Shown here: piece by piece, positions 6,756 through 58,595 of the stretch
Numbering within the stretch: the stretch's first letter is position 1
Layout: each line of letters begins with the position of its first letter
Assembly: GCA_964623645.1 (NCBI GenBank)
Contig: CAZURG010000002.1
Location: 8,041-72,040, forward strand
Source: an uncultured Gammaproteobacteria bacterium
GTDB lineage: Bacteria > Patescibacteriota > Patescibacteriia > 2-12-FULL-60-25
Direction: 5' to 3'
Length of the DNA: 64,000 bases
Program-made: the position numbers and the translations under genes
Notes under the pieces: generated by a model
The model's database searches: none
What the model saw: the letters and a program-made list of their open reading frames with translations, nothing else
What the model was told of the DNA's origin: nothing

Positions 6756-7625
6756 CTAGATATGCACGTCGCTATTCTTCACGATAATCGCGCCATTATC
6801 GTGGACTATATTTTTGACGCAAGTAATTCTTTCTCCAAACTCATCCGAGTTACTTTTTTGGTTCTCTGCATGATCATTATTCCATCGTGTGATCATAATT
6901 CTCACTGCGCCATTAATTATTTCAAGCAGATCTTCCGGAGAAATAAAGATCCCTTGAAAATTCGTTTTTCTTTCGAGTTCGCGAGATTTTTCATTGAGCA
7001 AATCATCAGCGACGCAGACTTTATTCTGCACTGAAAAGAAGTGAGTTAGACAATTGCGCAGCTCCCTTAAGTCTTTTGTTGTTAAATGTCTCAAACGGTC
7101 GGGGTTTTTTTGACCCCACTTGTTGCTTTCGTGTAGGCAGAATCTATTCAAAAATGAATCAATCTCCTTTTTATTCATTGCAAATCCAATGATTTTTTCT
7201 TTGTCATATGTTTGTTTCTCGTAAGCCAGATTTAAACAGAATAGTGTATCTAAGTATGCAAATAATGCGACCACCTTAGATCGTGTAAATGGTTTTATCG
7301 TGGTATTTTCAAGAAAAGCAATGGGATTTTGAGATAGGGTGTGCTCGAAAGTGAGAGACTGTTCTTTCAGGACACTGAATGATTTCTCGATCAGCTTAAA
7401 TAGTTCTTTAAAATATGATCTGATATTCAACATCTTTCTATCGATCTCTAACATGCTCTTCACCTCTTTCTCTATTTCTTGCAAGAAAGAAATGATAGGG
7501 AGTAGATCGGGGGATATAACGACCTTATCTCCATCAAAGACAAAAAAAGTTGCTTCATTGAATACTGGAGCTTGTTCGGTATCGAGGTGTCCGGAAGATT
7601 GCTTTTTTGATGTTTGAGGAGCCAT
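6756..7625 (-). CDS. HEPN-like (Abi-type) protein with an RNxxxH motif
   Basis: 289 aa. DLRELRNCLTHFFS gives R-x4-H (codons at 7041-7058) in a helical C-terminal half. This resembles the Abi_2/HEPN families. Confidence 0.5.
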   Translation of the reverse strand: MAPQTSKKQSSGHLDTEQAPVFNEATFFVFDGDKVVISPDLLPIISFLQEIEKEVKSMLEIDRKMLNIRSYFKELFKLIEKSFSVLKEQSLTFEHTLSQNPIAFLENTTIKPFTRSKVVALFAYLDTLFCLNLAYEKQTYDKEKIIGFAMNKKEIDSFLNRFCLHESNKWGQKNPDRLRHLTTKDLRELRNCLTHFFSVQNKVCVADDLLNEKSRELERKTNFQGIFISPEDLLEIINGAVRIMITRWNNDHAENQKSNSDEFGERITCVKNIVHDNGAIIVKNSDVHI

Positions 7626-55588: not shown

Positions 55589-56818
55589 ATGACCATCGCT
55601 ATCGTCGGAGGCGGGGCCGCCGGACTCATGGCCGCCGCGACCCTCTGTGAGCAAAACCCGGAAGTACGGGTCATTTTGCTTGAAAAAAATGATGCCTTAG
55701 GGAAAAAAGTCATCATTTCCGGGGGCGGCCGCTGCAACGTCACGACCGGCCTGCGCGATCTCCGCGAGGTCCTCAAGCGCTATCCCCGCGGCAACAAGTT
55801 CCTCCTCTCCGCCTTCCACCAGTTCCCGCCCGAAGCCGTCTACGCCTGGTTCGAGGCCCACGGCGTCCCGCTCAAGATCGAGGAGGATTTGCGGGCCTTC
55901 CCGCAATCCGACGACGGCCATGACATCGTGGCCGTGTTCGAGCGGCTGTTCCGTAGGGGGAATGTTGAGGCCCGGCTGAAGGCAAACGTGATCCGACTCG
56001 AGAAGGCGTCCGACGGGTTCCACCTGTTCCTGAAGGACCGGCCGGAACCGCTCGCCGTCGACCGCGTCATCCTCACCACCGGCGGCCAGGCCTATCGCCA
56101 TACCGGCTCCACGGGCGACGGCTATGCCTTCGCGCAAGCCATGGGCCACACGCTCACGCCCCTCGCGCCGAGCCTGAACGCGTTTTTCACGAAGGAGACC
56201 TGGCCCGCCGAGCTCGCCGGGCTGTCGTTCGCGCGCGCGACCGTCACGGCACACCGGGGGAATGTGCACACGTATACCGGTCCGTTCCTGTTTACGCATA
56301 AAGGTATCACGGGTCCTGCGGTGTTTGCGGTCTCGTCGTTGGTGGCGTTCGAGGCGTATGACGTGCAGCAGCCTCTGCGTGTCACGCTCGATCTCTTTCC
56401 GGATGAGACGGCCGACGCGCTCCGTGCCCGCCTCGAGACGCTCCTCCGCGCGAACGGCCGCAAGGCCCTCGCGACGGTCTTGGGCTTCGCCGTCCCGAAA
56501 TCCCTCGCGACCGTCCTCTGTCGAGAGGCGGGCGCTCCCGAACACAAGAACGCGGCCGACGTGAACAAGCAGGAACTCCTCCACATCGTCGCCTGGCTCA
56601 AGGCCGCTCCGCTCGACGTGACGGGCCGCGGGGCAGGGGACGAGTTCGTGACGGCAGGGGGGATTCCGTTGAATGAGGTGAATCCGAGTACGATGGAATC
56701 GAAAATCTGCCCCGGATTGTTTTTTGCGGGGGAGATTTTGGATATCGATGGGTTTACCGGAGGGTTCAACCTGCAGGCGTCGTGGGCGACGGGGAGGTTG
56801 GCGGGGATGGGCGCATGA
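55589..56818 (+). CDS. HI0933/BaiN-family NAD(P)/FAD-dependent oxidoreductase
   Basis: 409 aa. IAIVGGGAAGLMAA, ISGGGRCNVT and the C-terminal FAGEILDIDGFTGGFNLQ. Confidence 0.9.
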   Translation: MTIAIVGGGAAGLMAAATLCEQNPEVRVILLEKNDALGKKVIISGGGRCNVTTGLRDLREVLKRYPRGNKFLLSAFHQFPPEAVYAWFEAHGVPLKIEEDLRAFPQSDDGHDIVAVFERLFRRGNVEARLKANVIRLEKASDGFHLFLKDRPEPLAVDRVILTTGGQAYRHTGSTGDGYAFAQAMGHTLTPLAPSLNAFFTKETWPAELAGLSFARATVTAHRGNVHTYTGPFLFTHKGITGPAVFAVSSLVAFEAYDVQQPLRVTLDLFPDETADALRARLETLLRANGRKALATVLGFAVPKSLATVLCREAGAPEHKNAADVNKQELLHIVAWLKAAPLDVTGRGAGDEFVTAGGIPLNEVNPSTMESKICPGLFFAGEILDIDGFTGGFNLQASWATGRLAGMGA

Positions 56819-58088
56819 TTGATTGCTTCACGTGCATTTTGGTTGTGATGTGGCCATGTATTTGATAAATATGAGTTAAATTTGGTTGTCTTATTCCTGT
56901 GAAGTACGGCTATGATTGCTCGCTTTAGAATTCTTTTGCCCTATACGGTATTTGTGCCAGAGGGTGCAAGGCTTGATCCGATAAAACAGACAGTCGCTTC
57001 TTATCAGGTTACGATCCACCCGCCTTATCAGACGAAGCTGCTGCTACAAGATCTTGATCTTTTCTCCGAAAAATCACCCATCGACCTTCTTGAGGATTTG
57101 GAACCGGTATCGGATCCGACCTTTTTTGATCAGGTTTTAATTGGGGGTCGTAGAGGCGGTCCATCTACTTTAATTCAAATTGATTTTCAGGCGGATAGCT
57201 TTTCCCGGAAAAGGGGTCAAGAGCCACAGAGAATAGATCCTGGGGCAGAGTTTATATTTGCGATATTGAACTCATTTCTAAGCAAGATCCGAAGCCTGAC
57301 CAGGTCGCCCTACGTCAAAAATGTTACTCCGAATGAAAGCCATTTTAGAATTACGTATCTTGATGACGAAGGCACTCTCCTGCCGGAAGATAAAGAATTA
57401 TTTCGAGATTTTCGGTGTGGTAACATAGAGTTTAATGCGAATCATGTATCCGAGGCGATATGGAATCAAATTCAATCTTTGCCCGATTCGTACGCTCCGC
57501 TTCCGTATGAGAAGCTGTTATTGGATGCGCAGAGCATGATGTCTGAAATCGGTGCCTGTATTTTCTTAATGCACGCCGCTTTGGAATTGCTGGTCGAACA
57601 TGCGTTGGATATTTTAAAAGAGGCAATGCCGGCCTCTTCGCGTGAAATATGGTCTGTGCTTACTGACAAGCAGCGGTATCGGGTTGCTGAGCAGTATAAG
57701 GATCTTCTGCCGCTTGTATCTGGTGGACGCTCATTAGTGAAGGAATTGCCTGATCACTGGAACGCGTTTATGAAGCTTTGTAAGGCTAGGAATGGTTTTG
57801 CACACGAGGGAAAGCTGGTTGTGGAAGGGAATGAGCTATATTTAGACGATGTTAAAGAAATTTTCAGAAAGGTTAAAGAGATTGTCGATTTTGTCGAGGA
57901 GCTGTTGCCAATTGAAAAACGTCGGCAGCCTTTTTCCGGTGCGAAGATAGATATTGGAAAAAAACTAGCTGATCCAAATCCTGGCACAAATAGAAATGTA
58001 ACTGTTCGTGTGGATACGATATAACTTGAGACGACGTACTGCGCTCTACCCCTCCCCACGCCGACGTTTTCCTGGAATGGAATCTTTT
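56819..58088. mobile_element. AT-rich single-gene islet between GC-rich housekeeping genes
   Basis: There is a sharp visual drop in G+C between the oxidoreductase stop (56818) and the greA stop (58089). I found no flanking direct repeats or recombinase. Confidence 0.45.
56912..58024 (+). CDS. HEPN-like protein with an RNxxxH motif (ApeA/Abi-like architecture)
   Basis: 370 aa. The C-terminal helical domain has FLMHAALELLVEHAL ... LCKARNGFAHEGK (R-x4-H at 57788-57805). The N-terminal ~190 aa are unrecognised. Confidence 0.5.
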   Translation: MIARFRILLPYTVFVPEGARLDPIKQTVASYQVTIHPPYQTKLLLQDLDLFSEKSPIDLLEDLEPVSDPTFFDQVLIGGRRGGPSTLIQIDFQADSFSRKRGQEPQRIDPGAEFIFAILNSFLSKIRSLTRSPYVKNVTPNESHFRITYLDDEGTLLPEDKELFRDFRCGNIEFNANHVSEAIWNQIQSLPDSYAPLPYEKLLLDAQSMMSEIGACIFLMHAALELLVEHALDILKEAMPASSREIWSVLTDKQRYRVAEQYKDLLPLVSGGRSLVKELPDHWNAFMKLCKARNGFAHEGKLVVEGNELYLDDVKEIFRKVKEIVDFVEELLPIEKRRQPFSGAKIDIGKKLADPNPGTNRNVTVRVDTI

Positions 58089-58595
58089 TTACTCCACCCT
58101 CACTACCCGATACTCCGTCCCCCCGCTCTCATTCTCCACCCGCACCGTTTCCCCGACTTTCCGGTTCAGCAACGCCGCCCCCACCGGCGACAAATGCGAG
58201 ATCCTCCCTTGCGACGGGTTCGCCTCGTGCGGCCCGACGAGCTGGTACGTCCGCTCCTTCCCATTCACCTCAACCGTCACCGTCGACCCCATCGCCACGC
58301 GCCCATCGTCGCTCGCCTGGGTGATGATCGCGCGCTTCAGGCGGTCCTTGATGATCATGACGCGGCCCTGCAGCCGGGCGAGTTTCGGTTTCGCCTCTTG
58401 ATACTCCGCATTCTCCGAAAAATCCCCCAAGGTCAGGGCAAAACGCATCGATTCAAGGGCGGCGGGAAGATCGACTTTCTCGATCCGTTCCAGCTCACGT
58501 TTCAGTTTTTCCGCACCTTCTGGCGTCAAATAGACGACGTCGTCGCTCGTGTCCTGGTCGCGGAGCTGTTGGGAGGTTCGTTGGGGGAGGCGCAT
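58089..58595 (-). CDS. greA: Transcription elongation factor GreA
   Basis: 168 aa. LTPEGAEKLKRELERI, GDFSENAEYQEAK, and the C-terminal ISHLSPVGAALLNRKVGETV. Confidence 0.9.
   Translation of the reverse strand: MRLPQRTSQQLRDQDTSDDVVYLTPEGAEKLKRELERIEKVDLPAALESMRFALTLGDFSENAEYQEAKPKLARLQGRVMIIKDRLKRAIITQASDDGRVAMGSTVTVEVNGKERTYQLVGPHEANPSQGRISHLSPVGAALLNRKVGETVRVENESGGTEYRVVRVE

Follow-up and report, generated by a model that had tools for sequence, protein, structure and literature searches.

What brought a single gene of deviant base composition between two conserved genes of a genome from a lineage of about 1-Mb genomes, and what might its product do there? The window, by which we mean the whole 64,000-nucleotide stretch of DNA analysed here, poses this question at a locus where a low-GC segment, hereafter the islet, separates an oxidoreductase gene from greA and encodes one protein ending in an HEPN-type R-x4-H signature. 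Stand-alone HEPN nucleases such as ApeA and DARNA serve as models for how one and the same protein can both sense infection and kill, and to our knowledge each new sensor domain described so far has led to a new trigger, for example deoxydinucleotides or SSB-bound single-stranded DNA. As detailed below, the islet protein presents an uncharacterised domain architecture inside this well-known kind of system.

A low-GC islet with a single gene

The islet extends over positions 56814..58087 (1.27 kb, unstranded), with similarity to three sister species ending at 56805-56813 and restarting at 58088-58107, and its content is limited to one gene. It sits between two conserved, convergent genes: on its left an HI0933-like FAD oxidoreductase gene (55589..56818, plus strand; Pfam PF03486, E 2.4e-76), and on its right greA (58089..58595, minus strand; Pfam GreA_GreB and GreA_GreB_N), whose protein is 89-92% identical to those of the sister species. 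The islet gene itself occupies 56912-58024 on the plus strand, stop codon included, and encodes a 370-aa HEPN-domain protein; no rival long ORF overlaps this interval. The start codon can be fixed at 56912 because the N-terminal sequence MIARFRILLP matches the consensus MIARFRxLLP seen in the alignment of homologues.

In composition the segment stands apart from its surroundings. GC content drops to 0.42-0.49 over about 56650-58150, with values of 0.56-0.69 on both sides, which bears out the initial annotation of an AT-rich segment of ~1.27 kb carrying a single 370-aa ORF between the oxidoreductase gene and greA. The GC content of the gene is 0.4385 against 0.6046 for the whole 1.23-Mb assembly, a deviation of z = -4.1 relative to windows of equal length, and only 1.1% of 5,826 such genome windows are equally low. 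The same holds at third codon positions, where GC3 is 0.42 in the islet gene as compared with 0.81 in the oxidoreductase gene, 0.78 in greA and 0.71 in a neighbouring ABC-F gene. On the basis of both GC and GC3 we mark the gene as foreign, and its horizontal acquisition appears very probable.

The initial annotation had also reported the lack of a partner gene, flanking repeat or recombinase, and our searches of the window likewise ended without a significant find: neither a partner gene nor a recombinase is visible around the islet gene, tRNA and Rfam searches return no element at the islet, and the repeat search yields only short flanking pairs at chance level. For att-like or inverted repeats, the best alignment between the left and right junctions scores 17, against a shuffled null with a mean of 14.7 and a 95th percentile of 18. 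The rest of the host genome contains no recombinase related to the resolvases that accompany certain homologues (see below), and the plus strand yielded no promoter-like site. Entry of the cassette by recombination within the conserved flanks would be the simplest idea. The gene is, finally, in agreement with the initial annotation, no paralogue of the other HEPN-like gene of the window at 6756-7625, since BLASTP comparison of the two gives scattered short matches only (E 0.054).

The oxidoreductase-greA interval is a variable hotspot

We aligned the greA neighbourhoods of same-genus genomes with the window, whose own genome is referred to as G000, and focus here on the three closest species, G008, G001 and G007. 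In all three the flanks are syntenic, with 77-85% DNA identity on both sides, and the breakpoints are identical across the four genomes: one falls in the final ~4 codons of the oxidoreductase gene (after ...GAGGTTGGCGGGG), and the other coincides with the stop codon of greA. What lies between them differs. G008 carries a gene of normal GC content for a 322-aa DHH/DHHA2 phosphoesterase; G001 carries the DHH gene of G008 together with a DUF218 gene on an insert of ~800 bp, which is delimited by a 120-bp copy (90% identical) of the 3' end of the oxidoreductase gene; G007 carries a low-GC gene with a SocA/Panacea antitoxin domain (E 8.8e-21) and a 122-aa partner; and G000 carries the HEPN gene. 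The interval is thus a variable hotspot with three different occupants among four species. Since a search of the whole 96%-complete G000 assembly did not detect the DHH gene, the HEPN cassette has probably replaced it.

As the initial annotation anticipated for an inserted gene, the sister species lack the islet gene at this site, and its composition is abnormal. It is missing, moreover, from the genomes of all 60 nearest relatives, and a search with the family profile is positive in just one genome among 401 drawn from across the phylum, with matches confined to the HEPN domain in two others. Genomes across the phylum uniformly measure 0.7-1.7 Mb. A hotspot with three states (DHH gene, Panacea toxin-antitoxin pair or HEPN gene) is here documented in a lineage of about 1-Mb genomes whose gene flow and defence repertoires are little known.

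The C-terminal domain adopts a predicted HEPN fold

Two alignments of homologues underlie the analysis of the protein, one of 151 members used for residue counts and the tree and one of 114 members used for the AlphaFold2 model and for the Pfam and PADLOC scans. Predicted helices, Foldseek and Pfam together delimit a helical-bundle HEPN domain at aa 198-333 (57503..57910, plus strand), modelled with helices at aa 198-208, 213-237, 241-253, 258-269, 280-299 and 311-331. The KARNGFAHEG stretch highlighted in the initial annotation corresponds to aa 291-300, and its R-x4-H signature, R293-N-G-F-A-H298, lies exactly at the coordinates then given, 57788..57805 on the plus strand. Conservation of the two proposed catalytic residues is near complete among the 151 aligned homologues, with the arginine present in 151/151 and the histidine in 150/151, while N294 is kept in 143/151. 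The glutamate encoded at 57584..57586 (plus strand), E225 in the first long HEPN helix, is found in all 151, and W283 is retained in 150 of them; in the 114-homologue alignment E225, W283, R293 and H298 are all invariant.

Profile matches point to the same superfamily without settling on one of its families. The Pfam match of the window protein itself is to HEPN_RiboL-PSP (E 5e-5); its score of 23.7 bits falls short of the gathering score (28.4), and it spans only the last ~47 model positions, around the R-x4-H helix. When the 114 members were scanned singly, sub-threshold matches were obtained to HEPN_RiboL-PSP in 42, HEPN_Apea in 30, HEPN_AbiU2 in 15 and Cthe2314 in 3, each of these a family of the HEPN clan, with single matches to each of Csm6_HEPN and Swt1, such that the first three are the only Pfam families matched by more than three members (best E 5.7e-7, 2.8e-5 and 3.9e-5, respectively). 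In PADLOC scans of the same members the matches are weak, and most of them concern CARF-HEPN, Csx1/Csm6 and RT-associated HEPN models.

The AlphaFold2 model built from the 114-sequence alignment has a pLDDT of 93.6 and a pTM of 0.86. Its comparison with the PDB by Foldseek returns first 2q00 (prob 1.00, TM 0.63-0.67 normalised to target), a PaREP1-type HEPN protein (Anantharaman et al. 2013), and the next meaningful matches are HepT (7bxo; also 6m6w), Csm6 (5fsh, 6tug) and the sacsin HEPN domain (3o10), all with modest E-values of about 6e-3 or higher. The HEPN-like fold first suspected from the motif is therefore recovered by modelling and structural search, and the conserved R-N-x3-H motif, the HEPN-clan profile matches and the fold taken together make the C-terminal domain, in our view with little doubt, an HEPN domain, well supported at the superfamily level.

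An N-terminal domain without detected relatives

Upstream of the HEPN bundle, the AlphaFold2 model and the conserved residues delineate an N-terminal alpha/beta domain at aa 1-195 (56912..57496, plus strand), which we regard as a candidate sensor or regulator. It is modelled with a pLDDT of 87-98 per 10-residue block and is rich in beta structure, featuring long strands at aa 2-16 and 80-93 together with a helix at aa 112-130. Alignments of the homologues single out F97, R99, D109, P110, N120, R127, D152 and W184 as conserved. No relatives of the domain appear in Pfam, NCBIfam, PHROGs or PADLOC, Foldseek finds no structural match in the PDB or BFVD, and comparison with PDB sequence profiles gives chance-level matches only, so that the novelty claimed at the outset for the N-terminal ~190 aa holds across these six resources. 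At the opposite end of the protein, a C-terminal tail at aa 340-370 (57929..58021, plus strand) is unconserved, aligns with gaps and variability and is modelled as disordered, with pLDDT values of 89, 70 and 47 over the final three 10-residue blocks.

A sizeable family with a patchy distribution

A word-indexed search of 5.8 billion clusters yielded no more than 10 relatives, which are 31-35% identical. When 1.84 billion representatives were searched exhaustively, 510 were returned at E <= 1e-3, of which 388 reach <= 1e-10 and 140 reach <= 1e-30; the family thus counts at least 510 clusters (50% identity), nearly all of them full-length proteins of 330-400 aa. No model in Pfam, NCBIfam, PHROGs or PADLOC captures it, and a relative from Rhizocola hellebori bears the UniRef name 'Apea-like HEPN domain-containing protein'. 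Named genomes with homologues belong to Kofleriaceae, Chloroflexia, Actinomycetes, Thermoleophilaceae, Limnocylindria and Rhizocola, and within the actinobacterial order that contains the Thermoleophilaceae genome the family is found in only 1 of 201 genomes. Carriage by plasmids or phages was rejected, as tblastn against 72,556 plasmids and 50,697 phages gave no match in either collection.

In a FastTree phylogeny of 151 members the window protein forms a clade with P0043 and P0056 (support 0.96), at the end of a long terminal branch. The contigs of these two relatives have GC contents of 41-47%, matching the 44% of the islet, and the best identity is only 37-39%; the former suggests a low-GC donor lineage and the latter one that is not closely sampled. 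The gene is GC-poorer than its surroundings in the 10 homologue loci first examined, all in high-GC hosts. That it should always be GC-poorer than its host was rejected as a general rule because gene and contig GC are equal in low-GC contigs. The window protein is also divergent at otherwise near-invariant aromatic positions (W145F, W199Y, W249V and W327F), and because of these replacements and of its long branch it might conceivably have reduced or lost its function.

Genomic neighbourhoods vary from one homologue to the next. Across 8 homologue loci no conserved neighbour of at least 90 aa occurs within 5 kb, and in these loci plus the window no conserved ORF of at least 35 aa or conserved flanking DNA occurs within 1.5 kb. 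A partner gene and a small-ORF or RNA antitoxin were rejected on the strength of this lack of conserved ORFs and flanking DNA and of the absence of Rfam matches and tRNAs. One homologue has a small serine recombinase (resolvase) in divergent orientation 54 nt upstream, followed by an SLFN_AlbA_2 gene, and on a second contig a 67%-identical resolvase lies by the homologue. Another locus combines a large serine recombinase, a RepSA-type replication gene and a ThsB-type TIR gene (ThsB_TIR), and yet another features DUF5677 and a CHAT-like gene. Some loci are one-gene islets amid housekeeping genes, like that of the window. Association with defence genes is anecdotal, being seen in about 4 of the 11 loci with usable flanks, and two loci, that of the window among them, lie amid housekeeping genes. 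The distribution of the family is patchy and partly linked to mobile elements.

Proposed function and rival explanations

These observations lead us to a reading that we consider rather likely, in which the islet gene was acquired horizontally and would encode a stand-alone HEPN RNase that carries its own sensor domain and serves an abortive-infection type of defence. A single-gene cassette would have arrived by horizontal transfer, displacing the DHH-family phosphoesterase gene at the hotspot. By analogy with characterised enzymes, two subunits would pair via their HEPN domains to form a composite, metal-independent RNase site, which the N-terminal domain would hold off until an infection-derived cue is sensed, its conserved polar residues presumably forming a site at which a ligand or partner binds to gate the enzyme. 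Once activated, the enzyme would cut cellular RNA, most likely tRNA, the anticodon loops of which are the commonest target in stand-alone HEPN defences, and the ensuing halt of translation or growth arrest would abort phage infection. We infer the RNase, dimerisation, sensor, RNA-target and defence steps from characterised HEPN nucleases (Anantharaman et al. 2013; ApeA and DARNA preprints), with precedents in ApeA and DARNA, both sensor-gated tRNA anticodon nucleases (bioRxiv 10.64898/2026.01.26.701840; bioRxiv 10.64898/2026.02.22.705581). Uncertainty in this reading centres on the defence role, which is deduced from context, and none of the family members scores high enough for a curated defence model.

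A selfish role, in which the HEPN RNase serves as an addiction toxin that stabilises the mobile DNA carrying it and contributes nothing against phages, would account for the two homologues next to small resolvases and for the toxin-antitoxin-type SocA/Panacea pair that occupies the same hotspot in G007, and it agrees with the frequency of HEPN toxins such as HepT and RnlA in toxin-antitoxin systems and with the presence of HepT among the structural matches. Such a toxin would have to be neutralised, either by its own N-terminal domain acting in cis or by a small RNA or peptide that has escaped recognition as its antitoxin. However, the nine loci compared share neither a second ORF of at least 35 aa nor flanking DNA, no Rfam element is found, and the window retains no mobile-element gene that could be stabilised, and we consider this role unlikely. 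A recently transferred passenger that is intact by chance, whether decaying or inert, and does nothing for its host appears quite unlikely: the full-length frame of 370 codons, the four invariant residues, the consensus N-terminus and the confidently modelled fold (pLDDT 93.6) all speak against it, and a streamlined 1.2-Mb genome would be expected to purge useless DNA fast. The long terminal branch and replaced near-invariant tryptophans of the window protein nonetheless fit a passenger, as do its strongly unadapted composition (GC3 0.42), the plus strand devoid of a promoter-like site and the apparent truncation of one homologue (L024).

The position of the gene amid housekeeping genes could in principle reflect a cellular role, housekeeping or regulatory, for an RNA-processing or nucleotide-binding HEPN protein, for instance in RNA maturation near greA, and Las1, Swt1 and sacsin are indeed HEPN proteins that are not toxins. 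Yet a gene that none of the 60 close relatives possesses and that 400 of the 401 phylum genomes lack, that is foreign in composition, stands at a variable site in place of a gene unrelated to it and belongs to a family scattered sporadically across phyla is a most improbable candidate for such a role. We accordingly retain the sensor-gated defence nuclease as the reading that best fits the islet.

For the family as a whole we put forward, more tentatively, the idea of a previously unrecognised stand-alone immune nuclease whose N-terminal domain would represent a new type of infection sensor gating an HEPN RNase. Were this idea correct, the system would in the window have been captured at a recombination hotspot by an ultra-small genome (1.2 Mb), probably that of an episymbiont, and the hotspot would be one that swaps defence and toxin-antitoxin cassettes between species. 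Because it comprises at least 510 clusters, lacks a model in the databases and has an N-terminal domain without a structural relative, the family is, at about 360 aa, a compact and tractable candidate in which to look for another trigger mechanism; if it proved to be merely another HEPN toxin, its description would amount to routine accessory-gene annotation.

Comparison with known systems

The closest structural matches to the C-terminal domain, HepT of the HepT-MntA pair and the PaREP1-type minimal HEPN protein 2q00, carry the same type of motif. They are, however, single-domain proteins of about 120-140 aa with an MNT partner, whereas the islet HEPN domain is fused to a 195-aa N-terminal domain and stands without a partner. 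No MNT nucleotidyltransferase gene occurs in the window or in the homologue loci, and the N-terminal domain has no nucleotidyltransferase match by Pfam or Foldseek. Membership in the HEPN-MNT toxin-antitoxin systems was rejected for want of a neighbouring MNT gene.

RnlA and LsoA, of about 357 aa, are type II toxin-antitoxin toxins that provide defence against T4 dmd- phage. Their assignment to the HEPN superfamily (PMC3710099) adds to a likeness with the islet protein that includes size and the succession of an N-terminal alpha/beta region and a C-terminal HEPN domain with R-x4-H. RnlA nevertheless gives no Pfam match in the 114 members scanned and is absent from the best 50 Foldseek matches, and an RnlB/LsoB-type antitoxin gene adjoins none of the loci examined; lacking the antitoxin gene and any RnlA match in sequence or fold, the family was not assigned to this group. 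The Pfam families HEPN_RiboL-PSP (PF18735) and HEPN_AbiU2 (PF18734) are among the commonest profile matches, and the likeness to them is one of clan and not of membership.

ApeA is said to have been described as a single-gene defence by Gao and colleagues in 2020, and like the islet protein it combines in one gene product a C-terminal HEPN domain bearing R-x4-H with an additional non-catalytic region as a possible sensor. The ApeA monomer of about 580 aa is mainly helical and consists of an N domain (1-198), a Mid domain (199-309) and a split HEPN domain (335-583); it assembles into decamer or dodecamer rings as seen by cryo-EM, cuts tRNA anticodon loops and becomes active when 5'-phosphorylated deoxydinucleotides occupy the pocket that lies between its N and HEPN domains (bioRxiv 10.64898/2026.01.26.701840). 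Compared with this helical three-domain protein, the islet protein has only 370 aa, a beta-rich N-terminal domain, no Mid domain and a compact HEPN domain of ~140 aa, and the matches listed for the window protein and its 114 relatives include no PADLOC ApeA model save for one weak 'Cas13-ApeA'. Length, fold and sequence models thus led us to reject membership in ApeA. Of the initial proposal of a single-gene HEPN defence of the ApeA/Abi type, the functional analogy stands as a fair one, with defence deduced from context, while the assignment to the ApeA family and architecture does not.

DARNA, also known as PD-T7-3, is a stand-alone HEPN RNase with one non-catalytic sensor domain; it acts as an abortive-infection tRNA anticodon nuclease, and its HEPN domain is closest to that of Csm6 (bioRxiv 10.64898/2026.02.22.705581). 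PADLOC detects no sequence similarity of the islet family to DARNA, and the domain order is reversed, the HEPN domain of DARNA being N-terminal and followed by a 300-aa helical Pds5-like C-terminal domain. The two nevertheless share the logic of a sensor and an HEPN domain united in one protein, and the islet HEPN domain is, by Foldseek, likewise partly Csm6-like.

Occupants of the islet site in sister species

In two sister species sharing the same breakpoints (G008 and G001), the site that in the window (56814-58087, compared with the greA-neighbourhood locus L016:5679-6647) holds the low-GC islet and its HEPN-domain gene is occupied by a DHH/DHHA2 phosphoesterase gene. A search for this gene across G000, the assembly to which the window belongs, detected none, and its loss from this genome seems to have coincided with the arrival of the HEPN cassette. 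G001 additionally carries an insert of about 800 bp with a DUF218 gene (L015:2950-3871), edged by a 120-bp duplicate of the oxidoreductase 3' end that is 90% identical and looks like the scar-like trace of an insertion that restored the end of the oxidoreductase gene. This duplicate suggests that the 3' end of the oxidoreductase gene serves as a recurrent recombination site.

In a third sister species, G007, the identical site features a low-GC two-gene module (L014:5358-6214). One of its two overlapping genes encodes a protein of 163 aa with a SocA/Panacea antitoxin domain (Pfam E 8.8e-21), the other a protein of 122 aa. The latter returned no match in a Pfam search, making it a candidate for a novel toxin that pairs with a Panacea antitoxin.

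Beyond the islet, the 0.60-GC genome of G000 has other short patches with GC at or below 0.46 (C4:47601-49714, C7:37201-38714 and C11:5401-7314), which are similar in size to the HEPN islet and may represent further single-gene acquisitions. A second GreA-like gene, 43% identical to the greA of the window, lies at G000:C10:26445-26903, and both GreA-type copies are present in all nine genomes of the genus (9/9).

Genomic context of HEPN-gene homologues

Two loci carrying homologues of the HEPN gene each feature a small serine recombinase gene upstream of, and divergent from, the homologue (L031:6860-7462 and L027:1414-2058). The two homologues are 54% and the two recombinases 67% identical to each other, and the arrangement may constitute a resolvase-plus-cargo mobile unit of one sub-clade. 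Copies of an 18-nt direct repeat lie on either side of the homologue gene in L027, at about 2470 and about 3821; with 94% identity and an E-value of 0.007, this repeat is marginal and could have arisen by chance. In a Limnocylindria homologue (L024:4494-5546) the open frame covers only 228 aa, yet similarity runs on to 5546, and this copy is probably frameshifted or decaying. Finally, on a contig of 31% GC, a further homologue resides on an integrative element with a large serine recombinase and a RepSA-like gene, which also bears a 145-aa ThsB-type TIR gene (L035:3069-3506).
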